Source of the DNA: Escherichia phage nataliec
Sequence record: MN850611.1
Reading direction: 5' to 3' (one strand)
DNA: 64,000 nt
Shown here: positions 3,896-27,161 of the stretch, one piece after another
Layout: each line of letters starts with the position of its first letter
Position numbering within the stretch: position 1 is the first letter of the stretch
The notes under the pieces: generated by a model
The model's input: the letters and a program-made list of their open reading frames with translations, nothing else
Databases searched by the model: none
Told to the model about the DNA's origin: nothing
Translations under genes and position numbers: made by a program

Positions 3896-4568
3896 TGAAG
3901 TATTGTGCCATGCTTATGACTTACATCCTCATGAGTTAGGTCTTGACTCCTGTGTATGGACTCCAGAACAGTGCAGGGATTTTGAAGACACCGCAAGAGA
4001 AGTTGTATGTTCACTTGAAGAGTTCCACACATCAGAACCAATTGTGAACGTTGTGGACAAAGATACCGGACAACCCATAGGTGTAAAACGTGATAGTTTA
4101 GTCATAGTCAATAAAGACCTTGTAGAAAAAGGGAATCTTATCTTAGCAGATATTGATGGTGTTCTTACAAATTTTAATCACGAAGATTGTTCAACGGAAT
4201 TGACTGATGGTTCATTTTCACAGTACACTAATCTTCTTGACTCTGTAAGAGCAAAACCAACGTATGTTTTCAATATCATTGATGCAATTGCTAATCATGC
4301 TGCCGTTGGACTCTTGACAGCGAGAGGTGAATCTCAGAGAATACCTACTGAGATGTTTTTAAGGCATAACACAGAGCATGACTACATGCTTTTTATGCGT
4401 GGTTTTGGGACTAACTCTATAAGTGCAGAAAGTTTGAAAGTGAGGATGATTCAGTCTTGCATCCTGCCTTACTTTAATATAGTATGTTTTATAGAAGACA
4501 CAGAGAAGAATGTGCAGAAGGTGAACAGAATCCTTCCACACATCAAAACCATGTTAGTTAAACATTGA
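3873..4568 (+). CDS. HAD-superfamily hydrolase-like protein (possible nucleotidase/phosphatase)
   Basis: HAD motif I D-x-D-G-V (LILADIDGVLT) and a motif II-like GLLTARG; 231 aa. Confidence 0.35.
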   Translation: MKKLRKSDEVLCHAYDLHPHELGLDSCVWTPEQCRDFEDTAREVVCSLEEFHTSEPIVNVVDKDTGQPIGVKRDSLVIVNKDLVEKGNLILADIDGVLTNFNHEDCSTELTDGSFSQYTNLLDSVRAKPTYVFNIIDAIANHAAVGLLTARGESQRIPTEMFLRHNTEHDYMLFMRGFGTNSISAESLKVRMIQSCILPYFNIVCFIEDTEKNVQKVNRILPHIKTMLVKH

Positions 4569-4578
4569 GAGAAAACTT

Positions 4579-5043
4579 ATGAACAATATCATTACGGTAG
4601 CACTGGACGTTACGGCAAACAAATCTGAAGTAGTTCGTAACATTATCAAGAGCAACTTTGAGGGTAAAATCTTCCGTGCTGTCAATGTAAAAGCAGACGG
4701 CAACATCCGAGAGTATCGTGCTCTTTTGAATGTTAAGAAACACGTAAAAGGTTCTGGCTCAACGACAGCACACAAAGAAAACCTGATGACCATCTATGAT
4801 ATGGGGATGGCTTCAGAATTAGGTGCTGAAGGTATCGTTAAAGAAGGTGCTCCGTATCGCTCTTTCAATCTGGAAACTGCTCTCATGCTTTCCTTTACAA
4901 GTGGTTCTAAAACAACTACTTATCTCTTTACTGATGCTGCAACGGTATCTGCTATCAAGGATAGCACTGTCAAAGCTGGCGTAGTTGCTGCTGCAAAAGC
5001 TTCTTCGATGGCTGCGAATATCCTTGCTAAAGTCCTCGGTTAA
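4579..5043 (+). CDS. hypothetical protein
   Basis: 154 aa ORF with RBS, followed by a strong terminator. Confidence 0.5.
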   Translation: MNNIITVALDVTANKSEVVRNIIKSNFEGKIFRAVNVKADGNIREYRALLNVKKHVKGSGSTTAHKENLMTIYDMGMASELGAEGIVKEGAPYRSFNLETALMLSFTSGSKTTTYLFTDAATVSAIKDSTVKAGVVAAAKASSMAANILAKVLG

Positions 5044-5054
5044 GGTTAAGATAC

Positions 5055-5080
5055 AGGCTCCTTCGGGAGCCTTTTTCATT
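5055..5080 (+). terminator. rho-independent terminator
   Basis: Hairpin aggctcc-ttcg-ggagcct followed by TTTTT. Confidence 0.7.
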
Positions 5081-5095
5081 TCAGGAGATTGCTAA

Positions 5096-5443
5096 ATGAC
5101 ATTTAAAGAGTTCTGTCAAGCCACTTTCATAATTGTTTTCTTAGTTGGGGCGGGTGTCTGGGGAGGATACTCTTACAGAGACTACCAAGTTGCTGAAGCT
5201 GAGCTAAATAATGAGAAACTAATAAGTGTTGCCAAAGATGCTTATCAGGAAGGTTTAGCCACACTGAGCACCAATTACAAAAATGATTTGAAAGATGTGC
5301 TTGCTAAGAATAAGCATACAAAAGAGGTACTAACGTATGAAAAGACTAAGCCAGAGTTTTATAATGTTTGTGTTACTGATAATTATGTCAGGGTGTTCAA
5401 CGAACAAAGTGAGCAGTACATTCAAAAACTCCCAAGTAAGTGA
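5096..5443 (+). CDS. membrane protein with N-terminal TM helix and coiled-coil (i-spanin-like candidate)
   Basis: TM segment FIIVFLVGAGVWGG then charged helical region; 3' end overlaps the start of a lipoprotein gene in another frame. Confidence 0.35.
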   Translation: MTFKEFCQATFIIVFLVGAGVWGGYSYRDYQVAEAELNNEKLISVAKDAYQEGLATLSTNYKNDLKDVLAKNKHTKEVLTYEKTKPEFYNVCVTDNYVRVFNEQSEQYIQKLPSK

Positions 5444-5606
5444 GAGTGATAAGTACACTCAAGAAGAATCACGGTATATCATCAAAGGCAACACAGGCAG
5501 TGATGTAGCAGCAGCCCTTGAGTTTTATCGTGATGGTTTTTACCAGTGCACAATCAAAGCTAATAACCTTATTGATATGATTTTATTAGGAAACAAACAG
5601 CAATGA
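5337..5606 (+). CDS. lipoprotein (o-spanin-like candidate)
   Basis: Signal peptide with lipobox-like IMSGC; start lies inside the preceding TM-protein gene (Rz/Rz1-like architecture); RBS aaagagg. Confidence 0.35.
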   Translation: MKRLSQSFIMFVLLIIMSGCSTNKVSSTFKNSQVSESDKYTQEESRYIIKGNTGSDVAAALEFYRDGFYQCTIKANNLIDMILLGNKQQ

Positions 5607-5872
5607 CAGAGAATGAAGACACTTTCTATGTAGAAGGGTACTTACTACTACCACGACCAAAAGAAACTTATATGCGTGTTGATTTCTCACCAACCATTAT
5701 GGACAACGTGATGTGTCATATCTTTATGCAAGGTGTCACAGCACAGCTTAAGCATGTTGGTAAAGAGTGCAAAATAAAGGTTGACACTCATCCAGAAATC
5801 AAAGAGAATCACTACACATGGTTCTTACCAGACTCTAAAGAAATCTTAGCAGTTCTTAAAACGAGGAAATGA
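5603..5872 (+). CDS. hypothetical protein
   Basis: 89 aa ORF, ATGA start/stop overlap with previous gene. Confidence 0.45.
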   Translation: MTENEDTFYVEGYLLLPRPKETYMRVDFSPTIMDNVMCHIFMQGVTAQLKHVGKECKIKVDTHPEIKENHYTWFLPDSKEILAVLKTRK

Positions 5873-6183
5873 TTATGCAATTCCAGCCAACAAATCGTGG
5901 ATTTTCTTATGCAGAATTTAAAGATGCTAAAGGGGAAATTTGTACTTTACAAGAGAGTTCATCATATGAACCATGTATCTGGTTAGGTGCTAAAGAGGTC
6001 TCTGTTCAGTACCTAGATGGTGGCTGGAAAACACTTGATATCCCAGCATTAGTAGGCAAAGATTTTGTAGGTAACCAAAGAATGAAACTCAATCAAGAAC
6101 AGGTAAAAGAACTGTTGCCGTACCTTCAATACTTTGCTGAAAATGGTGAATTACCAACAGAGGAACTTACAAATGCAGATTAA
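5869..6183 (+). CDS. hypothetical protein
   Basis: 104 aa ORF in translationally coupled series. Confidence 0.45.
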   Translation: MIMQFQPTNRGFSYAEFKDAKGEICTLQESSSYEPCIWLGAKEVSVQYLDGGWKTLDIPALVGKDFVGNQRMKLNQEQVKELLPYLQYFAENGELPTEELTNAD

Positions 6184-6499
6184 TGGAAGAGACTTTGTAG
6201 CCGTTTACTACGAGAAAGATAAAGAAGTTGGCGTAGCACAAGTATCTTATGGTAATGGTAAGTGGTTGTATGGGACAATCGCAGTAGTCGGAACAAGAAG
6301 TGATACAAAAACTTTTAAAGATTGTGTTGACCTTCTTGAAGAATCCATACACAATCATTGGTGTCTGATATGGATGACTGACAACGAAGTGATAGAACGC
6401 TTCAAAAAGATTGGTATCAACATTGATAGCATTGAGCATGTTGACTTGTATGAGCTAACTGAGAAGGTAAACTATGAAAGTAATACTAGCCAGAGATAA
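6173..6499 (+). CDS. hypothetical protein
   Basis: ORF track start is 6134; internal ATG at 6173 has a better RBS (gagga) and removes a 50-nt overlap. Confidence 0.4.
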   Translation: MQINGRDFVAVYYEKDKEVGVAQVSYGNGKWLYGTIAVVGTRSDTKTFKDCVDLLEESIHNHWCLIWMTDNEVIERFKKIGINIDSIEHVDLYELTEKVNYESNTSQR

Positions 6500-6707
6500 A
6501 AAGACCCGCAAGATTGTACGTTCAGCAGTATTCATAGGGAGAGATGAAGTCGTCCCGTTTGCAGGGGAAGATGTGCTAACTTATAAGAAGGGTTTAAAAC
6601 GTAAATTCAGTGACCGTTTACGCGGCTTCATCTCTGAACCATTAGAAGATTTCAAAAGTCGCTGTGGCGAAGGCATCATCATTCAAGAGGCAATTATTCA
6701 TGGCTGA
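6474..6707 (+). CDS. hypothetical protein
   Basis: 77 aa basic ORF. Confidence 0.4.
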   Translation: MKVILARDKKTRKIVRSAVFIGRDEVVPFAGEDVLTYKKGLKRKFSDRLRGFISEPLEDFKSRCGEGIIIQEAIIHG

Positions 6708-6900
6708 TTTCTGCAAAGATTGTGCTATCGAAATGTTTGGACGTGATACAGGTGACTTAAAAGGTCTTATCACTGAAGATGACTTTAAAGCTGGCTATGC
6801 AATGCCAGTAATCTGTGAAGGCTGTGGATGTATCTGGGTAGACCACGAAGGGCAACGTGTAAAACCTTCAGAAGATAAAGAATCTTGGGAGAGATGCTAA
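6664..6900 (+). CDS. hypothetical Cys-rich (zinc-binding?) protein
   Basis: CKDC...CEGCGC cysteine pairs; start may instead be the internal Met at 6700. Confidence 0.4.
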   Translation: MAKASSFKRQLFMADFCKDCAIEMFGRDTGDLKGLITEDDFKAGYAMPVICEGCGCIWVDHEGQRVKPSEDKESWERC

Positions 6901-7686
6901 ATGGGTATTGTAAAAATCATCAATGGGGATATCTTCTCCGCATTTGATAAAGGTAAGTTTGATATTATTGGTCACGGTTGCAACTGTATGAACTTAATGG
7001 GTGCAGGTATCGCTGACAAGATTTCTAAACTTTACCCAAAAGCATATGAGACCGATACAGAAGTTTATCTGTATGCAGGTGGTATAGGCCACAAGCCCTG
7101 TGAAAATTTACTGGGTAATTTCTCTGTAGCACGTTTAAAACAAGGTCGTATAGCTAACCTTTACACTCAGCTTAAGACTGGTAAAGATGCCCGATACAGT
7201 GCTTTAGAGTCATCTTTGAAGAAACTTAACAGGTACTGTGAAGTCAATCAGTTGAAGAAAGTTGGTTTACCTATGATTGGTGCAGGTATCGGTGGACTTG
7301 ACCCTCAAGCCGTCACAGTTATCATCAATCAGGTGATGAAGAGTGTAGATGTTTATCTATATATCTATGAAGGAGAGATGTACCACAAGTTACTCTCAGG
7401 TTGGAAGAACTACTGTGAACCAGAATACTTTGCAGGTGTAGCAGTGTTCACAGATAACGCAGTTACCCTCTTCAGACGAAGAAAAGGTAAGGTACATCAA
7501 AGTAACCCTCCGGTTGAAAAGATGTCTCTAAGTAACGCTCTAGTTACCCACCTGTCGAAGAGCAATCACAGAATTGCAGTAACATTTGGCAGTGATGCAG
7601 ATACTTACATCTATGCAAGAACTGATGAGGATATCGAGACAGTTTTCTCTTCGCCAGAAGTTACCTTCTTAGACGCAAAGAACTAA
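6901..7686 (+). CDS. macro-domain protein (ADP-ribose binding/processing) with C-terminal extension
   Basis: N-terminal IINGDIFSAFDKGKFDIIGHGCNCMNLMGAGIADKISKLYP and later VGLPMIGAGIGGLDP match macro-domain signature blocks; 261 aa. Confidence 0.55.
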   Translation: MGIVKIINGDIFSAFDKGKFDIIGHGCNCMNLMGAGIADKISKLYPKAYETDTEVYLYAGGIGHKPCENLLGNFSVARLKQGRIANLYTQLKTGKDARYSALESSLKKLNRYCEVNQLKKVGLPMIGAGIGGLDPQAVTVIINQVMKSVDVYLYIYEGEMYHKLLSGWKNYCEPEYFAGVAVFTDNAVTLFRRRKGKVHQSNPPVEKMSLSNALVTHLSKSNHRIAVTFGSDADTYIYARTDEDIETVFSSPEVTFLDAKN

Positions 7687-7759
7687 GAAACTTCGTAGTA
7701 TATTCACAATAGACTAAGCCTTTCTTATCTGGTAAATTTTTCAGGTAAGGAGGGCTTTT

Positions 7760-7952
7760 TCATTTCAGAATTGTGCAGGTATATTTCTATAGAGAAATCT
7801 GTAGAGGAAATTTTGAACTCCAAAGAGAAAATTCATTTTCAAACTGTGCAGGTAATCTCCAAAGGGTTTTTTCATTTTCAAAACGTGCAGACCCCGCTCA
7901 GGTCGGGCAAGAAAAATCATTTTAGAATTGTGCAGGTAGGTGGGTGCAGGTG
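7760..7952. repeat. four direct repeats, consensus TCATTTT(c)A(r)AAyyGTGCAGGTA
   Basis: Copies at 7760-7781, 7833-7854, 7872-7893, 7917-7938, plus an extra GTGCAGGT at 7945-7952, in an ORF-poor intergenic stretch. Confidence 0.6.
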
Positions 7953-8115
7953 GGGATGTCGCCATTTCTCACAAGGCTACCACATCTGGAAATAAAAGTC
8001 AACAGAAAAATTTGTAGCGGATTGAAAAATAATTCTTGATTGTAGTTCTGTTTTGTGGTATTCGCGCGCACCCGTTTCATTACAATTTTTGCAAAAAATA
8101 TTTTTAAAATTCCTA

Positions 8116-8144
8116 TTGACTCTTTGAGTATGGTTATCTAATAT
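8116..8144 (+). promoter_or_regulatory. sigma70-like promoter
   Basis: TTGACT, 17-bp spacer, TAATAT; about 50 bp upstream of the CDS at 8195. Confidence 0.55.
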
Positions 8145-8194
8145 TTGCATCAGACGGGCAAGCAAGCCCACTTCCTAAACTGGAGAATCTAAAA

Positions 8195-8401
8195 ATGCTG
8201 TACAGTCGCGAATTGATGGTTACAACTAACATTAACACAAAGGCAAAACGTTTTTACATACAAATCTGTGGCGTATGGTCCAGAATATCAGAAGCTGACT
8301 ATTGCAACTATGTAGAAACGGCTATAAACTCTAATTGCTACCTTACAAGAAATACAAGAAAGTACATAAGACAGACAGCAATTTACTACTACGATAAATA
8401 A
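8195..8401 (+). CDS. hypothetical protein
   Basis: 68 aa ORF downstream of promoter, RBS ctggaga. Confidence 0.4.
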   Translation: MLYSRELMVTTNINTKAKRFYIQICGVWSRISEADYCNYVETAINSNCYLTRNTRKYIRQTAIYYYDK

Positions 8402-8488
8402 AGTACTTTACAAGGGGCTTATAGTTCGATAAAGTAAGCCCCAGATAAAGAGCTTTGCTAACTAACCTTAAACTAGGAGAATCTGAAA
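8401..8488 (+). promoter_or_regulatory. intergenic cassette family A, copy a
   Basis: AAGTACTTTACAA + hairpin GGGGCTTA-loop-TAAGCCCC (8414-8442) + AGATAAAGAGCTTT + conserved leader with SD taggaga; precedes ATG at 8489. Confidence 0.6.
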
Positions 8489-8872
8489 ATGGCATATCGT
8501 GCACCTAAATTCATCAACAAAGACAACTTTCGCAACGCACTGGAGAAGTCACTTGATGAAAAATTTAACGGTAAATTGATTATTGTTCACGCATTCAATT
8601 TTAAGTATGATATTAATGGGAATAAAATCAACCATTACACGGCAACCATGATAGATGGTACACTTTCAAGTGAAAAAGCCGTACTGAATGCACTTGCTGG
8701 ACGCGGTAAAAACCTGATAAAATGTGATAAGCGACGTTATCAGGGCGGCGCATATGGTTATGATGATGCTGTTTACCATCTTGAAAATATGGGCTATCAA
8801 GTAGAAAAAGCTGGAGCATCACAAATCATCGGCAGCGATGGTTATGTAACTATCTTCAAAATTAACAAATAA
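8489..8872 (+). CDS. hypothetical protein
   Basis: 127 aa ORF behind family A cassette. Confidence 0.5.
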   Translation: MAYRAPKFINKDNFRNALEKSLDEKFNGKLIIVHAFNFKYDINGNKINHYTATMIDGTLSSEKAVLNALAGRGKNLIKCDKRRYQGGAYGYDDAVYHLENMGYQVEKAGASQIIGSDGYVTIFKINK

Positions 8873-8958
8873 AGTACTTTACAAGGGGCTTATAGTTCGA
8901 TAAAGTAAGCCCCAGATAAAGAGCTTTAACACTAAATCCTAAATTGGAGAACTTAAAA
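8873..8958 (+). promoter_or_regulatory. intergenic cassette family A, copy b
   Basis: Near-identical to copy a including the hairpin. Confidence 0.6.
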
Positions 8959-9216
8959 ATGGCTATTATCAAAAACGTTGTAATTACCGCAAAGACTCGT
9001 GATGACGCTCGTATCATGGCTAAAAAGTTATGCGGGAAAGTGGTTGACAACGGAAAACAATCTGCTGTAAGGTGGGGCGTGAAAGCTGATAAGCAACTAA
9101 CCTTAAAACATAATTCAAACAACCTTTTTAAAGGTGTAAAATCACTCGGTAAAGTAAACGTTTTTACCAAAAAAGGCTATAAAATGCACTTATCATTAAC
9201 TGGCAATTTAATCTGA
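8959..9216 (+). CDS. hypothetical protein
   Basis: ORF track start 8944 is a TTG inside the conserved leader; ATG at 8959 sits at the conserved distance from the SD. Confidence 0.45.
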   Translation: MAIIKNVVITAKTRDDARIMAKKLCGKVVDNGKQSAVRWGVKADKQLTLKHNSNNLFKGVKSLGKVNVFTKKGYKMHLSLTGNLI

Positions 9217-9228
9217 TAAAGTACTTTA

Positions 9229-9311
9229 CAAGGGGCTTAAAAGTTGATATCTTAAGCCCCAGATAAAGAGCTTTACCACTAAATCAAGTCCTTAAACTAG
9301 GAGATTCAAAA
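9229..9311 (+). promoter_or_regulatory. intergenic cassette family A, copy c
   Basis: Hairpin GGGGCTTAA-loop-TTAAGCCCC with a different loop; conserved leader. Confidence 0.6.
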
Positions 9312-9827: not shown

Positions 9828-9916
9828 GCTTTCTTTACACGGGGTTATCAAGCTGGTAGGATAGCCCCAGATAAAGAGATTTATCAAATAAAGCCCTTAA
9901 ACTAGGAGATTCTAAA
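9828..9916 (+). promoter_or_regulatory. intergenic cassette family A, divergent copy d
   Basis: Hairpin CGGGGTTATC...GATAGCCCC (compensatory base changes versus other copies) then AGATAAAGAG and conserved SD leader. Confidence 0.5.
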
Positions 9917-26005: not shown

Positions 26006-26082
26006 CTCTGTTTAGCTCAGCTTGGTAGAGCGTTCCGTTTGGGGCGGTAAGGCCGGAGGTTCAAGTCCTCCAACAGAGACCA
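26006..26082 (+). tRNA. tRNA-Pro (anticodon UGG), CCA encoded
   Basis: Hand fold: acceptor ctctgtt/aacagag, D stem gctc/gagc, anticodon loop tTTGGgg, T arm ggagg-ttcaagt-cctcc. Confidence 0.65.
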
Positions 26083-26099
26083 AATTTAAAGGGGTTACT

Positions 26100-26456
26100 A
26101 TGAGATTTTTAAAAGAATGTCCAGTTCATGGTTTAACTGAACATAGCATTCATAAGAATGGTAACGCCGGTAATAGAGTAAATTGTCTAAAATGTTGTGC
26201 ATTAAGGACAAAACTTAGAGAGAATGCCAATAGAGAGAAAGCATATAAGCTTTATGGCGATAGCTGCAAAATTTGTGGCTATAATAAATGTAAAAATGCT
26301 TTAGAATGGCATCACCTTAACCCAAACGAAAAAGAGAATACACCATCAAAACTTATGGGTGCATCTTGGGAAAAGGTTAAAAAAGAACTTGATAAATGTG
26401 TTTTGCTATGTGCTAATTGCCACAGAGAGGTTCATAGCGGAATTACAATGATTTAA
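26100..26456 (+). CDS. HNH homing endonuclease
   Basis: Motifs WHHLNP and CANCHREVH; ORF track start 26022 overlaps tRNA-Pro, so ATG at 26100 (RBS aaagggg) is preferred. Confidence 0.7.
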   Translation: MRFLKECPVHGLTEHSIHKNGNAGNRVNCLKCCALRTKLRENANREKAYKLYGDSCKICGYNKCKNALEWHHLNPNEKENTPSKLMGASWEKVKKELDKCVLLCANCHREVHSGITMI

Positions 26457-26457
26457 T

Positions 26458-26532
26458 GTCGTAGAAGGCAAATGGTTAGCCACCTGACCTTCAATCAGTT
26501 GCTCGCAGGTTCGAATCCTGTCTACGACACCA
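26458..26532 (+). tRNA. tRNA, anticodon ambiguous (loop cCTTCAa, possibly UUC/Glu with C33)
   Basis: Acceptor gtcgtag/ctacgac, T arm gcagg-ttcgaat-cctgt, CCA encoded; anticodon stem has a mismatch. Confidence 0.5.
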
Positions 26533-26538
26533 GTTTTG

Positions 26539-26612
26539 ACAGAAGACCAATTACAGCAAACTTAATCTTATTCATCTGAAGGTAAATCGGACAAAGAAGA
26601 TATTTGGTCTGG
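26539..26612 (+). ncRNA. helix-bracketed structured element 1
   Basis: 5' CAGAAGACCAA pairs with 3' TTGGTCTGG, enclosing about 55 nt; sits between two tRNA genes. Confidence 0.35.
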
Positions 26613-26623
26613 TCATTAAGAAT

Positions 26624-26700
26624 TGCGGGTATAGAGAAAGGGCGTCTCACATGTCTCATTAGCATGGTATCGGCAGGTTCGACTCCTGCACCCGCCTCCA
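26624..26700 (+). tRNA. tRNA-Met or Ile2 (anticodon CAU)
   Basis: Acceptor (t)gcgggt/acccgc(c), anticodon arm catgt-ctCATta-gcatg, T arm gcagg-ttcgact-cctgc, CCA encoded. Confidence 0.6.
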
Positions 26701-26706
26701 AATTTA

Positions 26707-26770
26707 CAGAAGACCGTTTACAGCAATATTTATTAAATTTTTAGCGGAAAAATTGAAAGATACGGTCTGG
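26707..26770 (+). ncRNA. helix-bracketed structured element 2
   Basis: 5' AGAAGACCGTTT pairs with 3' ACGGTCTGG; internal hairpin AATTTTT-agcgg-AAAAATT. Confidence 0.35.
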
Positions 26771-26783
26771 TAATACTAAACAT

Positions 26784-26860
26784 GGTTAGGAAGCACATAA
26801 GGTATGTGCGGTCGCCTGTTAAGCGAATGGCACAGGGTTCGAATCCCTGACTAACCGCCA
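26784..26860 (+). tRNA. tRNA-Asn (anticodon GUU)
   Basis: Acceptor ggttagg/actaacc, D stem gcac/gtgc, loop ctGTTaa, T arm caggg-ttcgaat-ccctg, CCA encoded. Confidence 0.7.
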
Positions 26861-26929
26861 AATTTAGGAGAGAAGCGATTGCTCACCGATTTGTAAGGTG
26901 CAAGTCCTTAGCCTGAATAGAAATTAAAT

Positions 26930-27017
26930 GTGTCGTTATCCCGTAGATGGTAGCGGTGGGGACTGTAAATCCCTTGTCATTGAGACTCGGTAGGTTCGAC
27001 TCCTACACGGCACACCA
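26930..27017 (+). tRNA. tRNA-Tyr (anticodon GUA), class II
   Basis: 88 nt; acceptor gtgtcgt/acggcac, anticodon arm gggga-ctGTAaa-tccct, long variable arm, T arm gtagg-ttcgact-cctac. Confidence 0.7.
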
Positions 27018-27022
27018 ATAAA

Positions 27023-27100
27023 GGTTATGTAGTTTAATTTGGTTAAAATACTCCCCTGTCACGGGAGATGATGAGGGTTCAAATCCCTTCATAACCGCCA
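27023..27100 (+). tRNA. tRNA-Asp (anticodon GUC)
   Basis: Acceptor ggttatg/cataacc, anticodon arm ctccc-ctGTCac-gggag, T arm gaggg-ttcaaat-ccctt. Confidence 0.75.
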
Positions 27101-27161
27101 ATTTTGAGAGGGCTATTTAGCCCCTCCCTTAAAGAGTTCTTACGAGTATTCTTTAAAGGAG

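Follow-up and report, generated by a model that had tools for sequence, protein, structure and literature searches.

What does the macro-domain protein encoded in the early region of Escherichia phage nataliec do during infection, and on which ADP-ribose-bearing molecule would it act? We addressed this question for a stretch of 64,000 nucleotides of this phage (sequence record MN850611.1), hereafter the window, in which positions 6901-7686 of the + strand hold an open reading frame (ORF) for a protein of 261 residues. A first, sequence-only reading of the window had taken this protein, hereafter the macro protein, for a candidate antagonist of ADP-ribosylation, and the ORF that it delineated is indeed intact. 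The comparisons reported here place the N-terminal half of the protein in one subfamily with Tk.4 (also named AdfM) of coliphage T4, and we tentatively favor an AdfM-like role against the host defense DarTG2, a reading that we regard as possible rather than probable. It ranks above the alternative that the protein acts in trans like the phage phosphatase Adpp, which serves in the reconstitution of NAD+.

The macro domain and its active site

The Pfam Macro profile (PF01661), which the sequence-only reading had named as the first check, matches the protein above the cut-off (E = 1.3e-7; 32 bits against a gathering score of 22), with residues 25-141 covering profile positions 2-117 of 118. A profile of 19 two-domain homologs compared with the PDB sequences retrieved TARG1 (4e-11), the DarG proteins of M. 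tuberculosis (7e-9) and T. aquaticus (3e-7), and Poa1p (6e-5). From the same 19-homolog alignment we obtained an AlphaFold2 model with a predicted local distance difference test score (pLDDT) of 85 and a predicted template-modeling score (pTM) of 0.86. Foldseek searches with this model recovered TARG1, DarG and Poa1p at E-values of 1e-9 to 1e-7 and target template-modeling scores (TM-scores) of 0.74-0.82; viral macrodomains were matched as well, the target TM-scores overall spanning about 0.65-0.82. All these alignments are limited to about 155-180 columns, which correspond to the N-terminal domain. The best matches in NCBIfam and PADLOC are both to DarG (E = 2e-12 and 4e-13, respectively). 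The presence of a macro domain with the three-layer alpha/beta/alpha macro fold in the N-terminal half is secure.

The elements that bind ADP-ribose are kept across the 19 homologs: D10 is nearly invariant, and the stretches M33-G-A-G-I-A38 and I126-G-A-G-I-G-G132 are invariant or nearly so. By its counterparts in well-studied macrodomains, Asp10 is expected to contact the adenine. In the first block, H25, N28, G34, G36 and A38 are invariant both in the two-domain set and in a 15-sequence alignment of single-domain relatives; in the second, P124, G127, A128, G129, I130 and G132 are invariant in the 19 homologs. The signature blocks to which the sequence-only reading had pointed are accordingly in place, namely GDI...DIIGHGCNCMNLMGAGIA...YP at residues 9-46 and VGLPMIGAGIGG at residues 121-132, and only the spacing it gave needs amending, with five residues rather than four between N28 and G34. 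H25 aligns with H24 of Adpp from phage Gary, the residue altered in the inactivating mutant H24A, and with H23 of Poa1p, for which there is a structure of the H23A mutant (6lfs). An active enzyme would be in keeping with the invariance of H25 and N28 and the near-invariance of D10.

The position of the catalytic Lys, K84 in TARG1, K80 in Thermus aquaticus DarG and K78 in PhiKZ AdfM, is occupied by Q90 in the macro protein. The whole stretch N86-L-Y-T-Q90 is invariant in the two-domain set (19 homologs), and its Asn and Gln also show no variation across the alignment of 15 subfamily sequences. We further sampled 130 homologous loci, which collapse into 81 clusters at 70% identity; a second scan for this sample was seeded on a Vibrio sequence, which biases the gene-adjacency fractions derived from it. 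The Gln is kept in 80 of the 81 clusters, the exception (L146) having Glu. The catalytic D125 of TARG1 aligns with G131, a position held by Gly or Ala across the homologs. Because the Lys is replaced by Gln and the Asp by Gly, the domain is not of the TARG1/DarG type in mechanism. By its signatures, H-[GQ]-C-N-C and N-x-[YF]-x-Q, which hold in all sampled clusters and references bar L146, it belongs instead to a distinct Poa1p-like phage subfamily.

In TARG1-type structures, the residues after the conserved Gln form part of the wall of the distal-ribose site. We measured this segment from marker to marker across the 81 clusters, a working criterion of our own rather than a published definition. 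It is a short loop of 19 residues in the macro protein, all two-domain homologs, T4 Tk.4 and 20 of the sampled clusters, whereas all nine homologs embedded in NARP1, the Adps-Namat gene pair, have a longer loop of 22-27 residues that is often basic; Gary Adpp is among these nine.

Comparison with individual macrodomains bears out this placement in detail. Human TARG1/OARD1 (PDB 4J5R, 4J5S) is the best solved-protein match, reaching 1e-9 and a target TM-score of 0.81 in Foldseek beside its profile match, but the two proteins share only 23% identity and differ at both K84 and D125. Yeast Poa1p (PDB 6LFQ-6LFU; Foldseek about 9e-8, target TM-score 0.74) shares the H-x-C-N-C ... G-G-I-A block that underlies its profile match; the sequence match is, however, limited to residues 1-60, and Poa1p has no C-terminal domain. 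The authors who described Adpp name Poa1p as the closest characterized homolog of the family (10.64898/2026.01.28.702374). DarG, the antitoxin of DarTG2 (NF048014; PDB 5M31, 5M3E, 5M3I), resembles the macro protein both in its macrodomain, which is among the best fold matches, and in the order of its two domains, macro then C-terminal; the C-terminal domains themselves are unrelated as far as the present searches show. We rejected the identification of the protein as a bona fide DarG: against the DarG equivalog model NF048014 it scores 47 bits where the cut-off is 250 (residues 7-160 on profile positions 4-150 of 338), the catalytic Lys is absent, the C-terminal domain differs, and DarT is not a neighbor, no toxin gene being annotated in the relatives of the window.

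Candidate substrates: ADP-ribosylated DNA and ADP-ribose-1''-phosphate

The closest characterized relative of the macro protein is T4 Tk.4 (BLASTP: 35% identity over 161 residues, 80 bits, E = 1e-23). The two have in common the HGCNC, NLYTQ and IGAGIG motifs, a Gln at the site of the catalytic Lys and the 19-residue loop, and both are encoded by orphan phage genes without a partner toxin. They differ in that Tk.4 is a single domain of 155 residues, whereas the macro protein has about 100 additional C-terminal residues, and in that an anti-DarTG2 phenotype is known for T4 alone; NARP1 is not known from T4. According to the HIDEN-SEQ preprint, hosts with DarTG2 deplete the T4 transposon insertions that fall in tk.4, and the phage becomes sensitive to DarTG2 once the gene is cleanly knocked out (10.1101/2025.11.20.689424). 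This evidence is genetic; the same preprint proposes that Tk.4 removes ADP-ribose from DNA (10.1101/2025.11.20.689424). The name AdfM is shared by Tk.4 and gp104 of PhiKZ, a Lys-containing protein of an unrelated lineage. The latter, the chimallivirus AdfM, is a macrodomain that removes DarT2-made ADP-ribose from DNA, and its catalytic N23 and K78 were published beside N22 and K80 of DarG (PMC13309987). N28 of the macro protein aligns with this catalytic N23, and thereby with N22 of the Thermus aquaticus DarG; gp104 nevertheless represents another macrodomain lineage (24% identity, E = 2e-4), with the DarG-type catalytic K78 where the macro protein has Q90.

By analogy with Tk.4, the macro protein would be an early counter-defense enzyme, the Tk.4-type macro domain of which would bind ADP-ribose and cleave by hydrolysis the group attached at the 1'' carbon of its distal ribose, so that ADP-ribose is set free. 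The likeliest substrate would be the ADP-ribosyl-thymidine that DarT2-type toxins set on replicating phage single-stranded DNA, and the protein would then serve as an orphan 'antitoxin' in the manner of T4 Tk.4/AdfM. The C-terminal domain may act as an accessory module that brings the enzyme into contact with a partner protein or with the macromolecule on which it acts. The AdfM-like role is suited by the transcription of the ortholog in phage Felix O1 at 5 min after infection, when replicating DNA would need protection, and the conserved second domain would be easier to explain if the target were a macromolecule or a protein than if it were a small metabolite. Homologs in other phages (the L102 cluster and L165) directly adjoin genes for NADAR. 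NADAR is an enzyme type that acts against DarTG1.

A number of observations weigh against this role. We found no data in the literature on Felixounavirus in connection with DarTG or aRES. A PhageMaP screen of the Felix O1-like phage Bas63, in which the ortholog is g95, used the defense panel built by Gao et al. Both g95 and DarT are absent from the searched text on that screen. The panel is not known to include DarTG or aRES. Since the macro protein and T4 Tk.4 both have Gln where DarG, TARG1 and PhiKZ AdfM require Lys, they would have to strip ADP-ribose from DNA by another mechanism. Gary Adpp is as close to T4 Tk.4 (35% identity, 77 bits) as the macro protein is, which makes this one family with two reported activities, and the presence of NARP1 about 8 kb upstream in Felix O1-like phages would give an Adpp-type activity a ready use. 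NARP1 adjacency was seen in none of the 20 short-loop clusters as against 8 of the 60 long-loop clusters (one-sided Fisher p ~0.09, by hand), so that the tie between loop length and NARP1 adjacency is only suggestive.

The alternative on which several of these points converge was opened by a preprint of January 2026, which followed the HIDEN-SEQ preprint by two months (10.1101/2025.11.20.689424; 10.64898/2026.01.28.702374). It names the NARP1-embedded macro protein Adpp and reports that Gary Adpp makes ADP-ribose from ADP-ribose-1''-phosphate, which arises when the RES-domain defense aRES cleaves NAD+; the three-gene set Adps-Adpp-Namat overcomes aRES, which the two-gene NARP1 does not (10.64898/2026.01.28.702374). 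Our macro protein could likewise turn the product of RES-domain NAD+ phosphorolysis into ADP-ribose, from which the NARP1 enzymes of the phage itself, Adps and Namat (in relatives their genes lie some 8 kb upstream), would rebuild NAD+, amounting to NARP1-AP in trans. We judge this fairly unlikely but a serious rival, because the relatives do carry NARP1 at that distance.

Gary Adpp lies in the same subfamily (26% identity to the macro protein, 53 bits, E = 1e-13; 35% to T4 Tk.4), its activity has been demonstrated in vitro and in vivo (10.64898/2026.01.28.702374), and the His lost in its H24A mutant corresponds to the invariant H25. The two proteins share N-x-Y-x-Q with its Gln, and both phages encode Adps and Namat, on our side by way of the relatives. 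The sequence and fold matches to Poa1p, a yeast ADP-ribose-1''-phosphate phosphatase, point the same way, as does the aRES homolog table of the preprint, which includes E. coli and Salmonella genomes (10.64898/2026.01.28.702374). Gary Adpp differs in being a single domain of 158 residues encoded between adps and namat (its sequence was confirmed in Table S1), in its variants HQCNC and NVYGQ of the motifs and in a basic loop after the Gln that is 7 residues longer. The macro protein is nearer to T4 Tk.4 than to Adpp and lacks the long loop of the NARP1-embedded homologs. Its gene lies 15 genes from NARP1, outside the operon, whereas the criterion of the authors was a position within two genes of Adps-Namat; their Table S1 of NARP1-associated macro proteins has no Escherichia, Salmonella or Felix entries (10.64898/2026.01.28.702374). 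A metabolite phosphatase also offers no reason for a conserved extra domain.

The genomic context of the subfamily bears on the same question. NARP1 is carried by both Bas63 and Felix O1. In Bas63 it comprises g79-80 (g79 Adps, g80 Namat), experimentally validated, and g95 lies about 8 kb and 15 genes downstream on the same strand. In the window we found no Adps or Namat homolog. The window begins inside rIIA (36-2057) and the NARP1 genes of Bas63 sit directly upstream of rIIA, so the corresponding pair would fall just outside it. Two distant two-domain homologs (33-34% identity, n=2) have a Namat-like gene 9-10 kb upstream in the order Namat-like - rIIA - rIIB - ... - PNK - ... - macro; this Namat synteny in three Felix O1-related lineages may, however, simply be inherited. 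In the Vibrio-seeded sample of 81 clusters, 8 lie in or beside Adps-Namat operons (NARP1), 3 beside Nampt and NMNAT (NARP2) and 3 beside NADAR; as NARP1 occurs in 4.3% of phages, the first of these adjacencies is far above chance. Other macro homologs on IMG/VR contigs abut Nampt- or Namat-like genes, and in Vibrio phage Skimmer the homolog stands between genes annotated as 'ribose-phosphate pyrophosphokinase' and phosphoribosyltransferase. The adjacency of macro and NARP1 genes is already known, and we claim no novelty for it, since the Adpp preprint describes it (10.64898/2026.01.28.702374).

We also observed a phage 'NAD island' in the IMG/VR loci L075, L100 and L102, in which genes for an NMNAT-Nudix fusion, a SLOG-like protein of 112 residues, Nampt, NADAR and a Tk.4-type macro protein follow one another in one orientation; L064 and L097 have the same arrangement without the NADAR gene. 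Sir2-like and Prs-like genes lie a few genes past the macro gene, and two anti-DarT enzyme types, NADAR and macro, thus adjoin a NARP2-like pair.

T4 Tk.4 (L002:6926-7390, minus) and Gary Adpp (L168:2501-2974) present the case of one subfamily assigned two functions in two preprints; text searches of the aRES/Adpp preprint gave no mention of DarT, AdfM or phage T4 (10.64898/2026.01.28.702374). Membership in this subfamily does not by itself point to one substrate for the macro protein, because Gary Adpp is a phosphatase in NAD+ reconstitution and no eraser of ADP-ribosylation. For the suggestion of the sequence-only reading that a phage copy could counter ADP-ribosylating defenses of the host, T4 Tk.4/AdfM at 35% identity provides a direct precedent. 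One enzyme might serve both ADP-ribosylated DNA and ADP-ribose-1''-phosphate, as both reactions cleave the substituent on the 1'' carbon and release ADP-ribose.

A broader or different eraser activity would have the macro protein remove ADP-ribose from proteins or RNA, countering protein- or mRNA-targeting ADP-ribosyltransferase defenses, or deacetylate the O-acetyl-ADP-ribose of sirtuin-type effectors. The nearest solved structure is that of TARG1, an enzyme with several substrates of this sort; the ortholog is annotated as O-acetyl-ADP-ribose deacetylase in some records, and macro homologs adjoin Sir2-like genes in some of the NAD islands. We nevertheless consider this improbable: no such activity is on record for any Tk.4-subfamily protein, the catalytic Lys and Asp of TARG1 are both missing, and the database product names are automatic transfers. 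Searches of the window and of Bas63 positions 40-87 kb found no ModA/ModB-like transferase and no NADAR, Sir2 or NMNAT homolog. There is thus no detectable ModA/ModB-like phage transferase whose product would need reversal, which argues against the further suggestion of the sequence-only reading, that the protein reverses a modification made by the phage itself; we rejected this suggestion on a search for ModA/ModB-like genes that did not extend to T4 Alt.

The change of Lys to Gln at a position essential for catalysis in TARG1 and DarG, and the fact that many macrodomains only bind, would also accommodate a non-catalytic reader or sponge, with the macro domain binding ADP-ribose or a derived immune signal and the C-terminal domain serving as effector or in oligomerization. 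Against this, Gary Adpp turns over its substrate despite an identical Gln, the alignments show no variation at the catalytic His and Asn, and T4 Tk.4 suffices for its phenotype without a second domain. We hold such a function to be highly improbable.

The C-terminal domain

The remaining residues form a second structural unit (Table 1). The sequence-only reading had seen no recognizable feature in this extension, which holds for all the libraries we tried, but its estimate of 110 residues is somewhat high, the region comprising about 100 (158-261). In the full-length model it has a pLDDT of 80-90, against 79 when modeled alone, and the high pTM of 0.86 suggests a defined packing against the macro domain. 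Pfam searches with 16 homologs gave only scattered single matches with E > 0.02 for this domain, NCBIfam gave none, and a profile of the domain retrieved nothing significant from the PDB sequences. Its sole Foldseek match in BFVD is the ortholog from phage SUSP2. A profile search against 1.84 billion representatives returned 12 matches, of which the genuine ones are all macro-fused proteins or their fragments; we discarded the large proteins matched over multiple stretches, such as the PQQ-type beta-propeller P0041, as repeat artefacts. The domain therefore occurs, in all that was searched, only in fusion with a Tk.4-type macro domain in Felix O1-related (Ounavirinae-like) phages.

We rejected the view that the two-domain protein is an artefact of fusion or annotation, since an intact ORF for 259-264 residues is present in 29 of 29 IMG/VR loci of Felix O1-related phages, with purifying selection acting on each half. 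In these loci the macro half has a median pairwise ratio of non-synonymous to synonymous substitution rates of 0.11; the C-terminal half, at 0.28, evolves 2-2.5x faster at the protein level. P174 and G179 of the C-terminal domain are invariant in the 19 homologs and Y236 is nearly so. The isoelectric point of the domain ranges from 4.8 to 9.7 among homologs and its net charge varies too, so that it presents no consistent signature of a DNA mimic or a DNA-binding domain.

Related macro cores carry other extensions. The Erwinia-phage-like contigs L035 and L036 (macro ORF 3998-4780) combine the same macro core with a different C-terminal extension of 95 residues, for which hhalign detected no relation to the Felix-type domain although both fall within PHROG 335, and the metagenomic protein P0027 (339 residues) joins a macro core to a PF20274 domain. 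Since other lineages thus attach different C-terminal regions, the macro core seems to accept accessory modules. We infer that the C-terminal domain of the macro protein may serve in targeting or in binding a partner.

A more specific version of this proposal, to which we give little credence, is that the domain binds a host defense protein, for example DarT2 or a RES-domain NADase, and thereby makes the macro protein a dual-mode 'erase and block' factor, possibly one that acts on both ADP-ribosylated DNA and ADP-ribose-1''-phosphate and passes the ADP-ribose on to NARP1. If true, the protein would be a functional analogue of the two-domain DarG with an unrelated, previously unseen fold.

The gene, its locus and its significance

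The macro protein is the ortholog of Felix O1 ORF13 (7130-7915, 261 residues) and of Bas63 g95 (bas63_0095), and it matches PHROG 335 over residues 1-260 (E = 1e-112). The window is Felixounavirus DNA, 90-95% identical to about 200 genomes of that group (Ounavirinae), with 95% identity to Bas63/JohannRWettstein at the macro locus. Full-length orthologs are held by 256 phage records, and full-length homologs (246-264 residues) in Felixounavirus and related phages range down to about 31% identity; approximately 2,500 further phage records, the T-even Tk.4 proteins among them, match only part of the query, essentially the macro domain. Public records name the product 'phosphatase', 'macro domain protein' or 'O-acetyl-ADP-ribose deacetylase', and the Felix O1 record describes ORF13 as 'hypothetical 17.5 KD protein in tk-vs intergenic region', a label under which T4 Tk.4 was formerly known. 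In view of such names, the macro-domain nature of the gene counts as already annotated.

Table 1. Coordinates of the macro gene, its encoded domains and motifs, and the flanking signals in the window
Feature	Coordinates	Strand	Basis
Upstream terminator-like hairpin, at the start of the + strand gene run	5055-5072 or 5055..5082	+	Terminator scan; same sequence as Felix O1 t5
GGGAGAG, Shine-Dalgarno-like site 7 nt 5' of the ATG	6887..6893	+	Sequence reading
Macro-protein coding sequence, 261 codons plus stop, ATG to TAA	6901..7686	+	ORF list and translation; uninterrupted
N-terminal macro domain, residues 1-157, Poa1p-like / Tk.4 subfamily	6901..7371	+	Pfam, profile, Foldseek, BLASTP
Asp10 codon, in the G-D-[IL] motif	6928..6930	+	Nearly invariant in 19 two-domain homologs; aligns with TARG1 GDL
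H25-G-C-N28-C-x-N-x-M-G-A-G-I-A38, catalytic His and Asn with first phosphate-binding loop	6973..7014	+	Alignments
N86-L-Y-T-Q90, subfamily signature followed by short active-site loop (Q90 codon 7168-7170)	7156..7170	+	Alignments
P124-M-I-G-A-G-I-G-G132, second phosphate / distal-ribose loop	7270..7296	+	Alignment
Linker helix, residues ~158-167	7372..7407	+	AlphaFold2 model
C-terminal beta-rich domain, residues ~170-261, six strands then terminal helix	7408..7683	+	AlphaFold2 model
Intrinsic-terminator-like hairpin, 17-bp stem and T run, closing the gene cluster	7716-7757 or 7716..7767	+	Terminator scan

The macro gene is the final member of a tightly packed run of genes on the + strand (5096-7686), and the TAA of the preceding ORF (6898-6900) directly adjoins its ATG. 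Its neighbors are small phage genes without annotated function. The stem of the hairpin that follows the gene is identical to that of the Felix O1 terminator t13 (Table 2 of PMC3185647). The sequence-only reading had called the protein early-expressed. The window alone cannot show timing, and we retain the label because end-point reverse-transcription PCR placed Felix O1 ORF13 among the genes with maximal expression at 5 min after infection (Table 3 of PMC3185647); that table is crude, some structural genes being likewise placed at 5 min (PMC3185647).

In the non-coding gap downstream of the gene (7687-8194), a unit of 28-34 nt (consensus ...TTCATTTTnnAAnTGTGCAG) recurs in five direct copies at 7745-7935 with spacings of 26-47 nt, and this array begins within the terminator hairpin. 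Bas63 is annotated with two tiny minus-strand ORFs at this array, and an Rfam search of the repeat region gave no match; a protein-binding array or a promoter cluster is possible. Farther downstream, a 70-nt cassette precedes successive small genes (8398-8467, 8869-8938, 9216-9285 and, in part, 9863-9891). It consists of a promoter-like pair TTTACA-N17-TAAAGT, within which lies a GGGGCTTA...TAAGCCCC hairpin, and, after the pair, of a ribosome-binding region with the conserved sequence CCTTAAACTAGGAGA; it looks like a phage-specific promoter/operator module. The cluster of the macro gene itself has no such cassette. The window also contains 24 tRNA genes clustered on the + strand at 26006-31350, as is usual in Felix O1-like phages.

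Taken together, the comparisons confirm what the sequence-only reading observed and support the checkable parts of its interpretation. The macro gene is an early phage gene for a plausible anti-defense protein and does not represent a new kind of system. Its macro domain is a further member of a family whose biology emerged only in 2025-2026, and what sets the protein apart is its build from two domains, one of them an orphan confined to Felix O1-related phages. The gene links two recent and so far unconnected findings in one family, AdfM of T4 against DarTG2 and Adpp against aRES, and a Tk.4-like member in a NARP1-carrying phage is a good case in which to ask whether the family is bifunctional. 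Typing, biocontrol and therapy work on Salmonella and E. coli makes wide use of Felix O1-like phages, and the defenses that these phages can neutralize bear on the prediction of host range. The C-terminal domain, without relatives outside this lineage, may reveal a new way to target or inhibit a defense protein.

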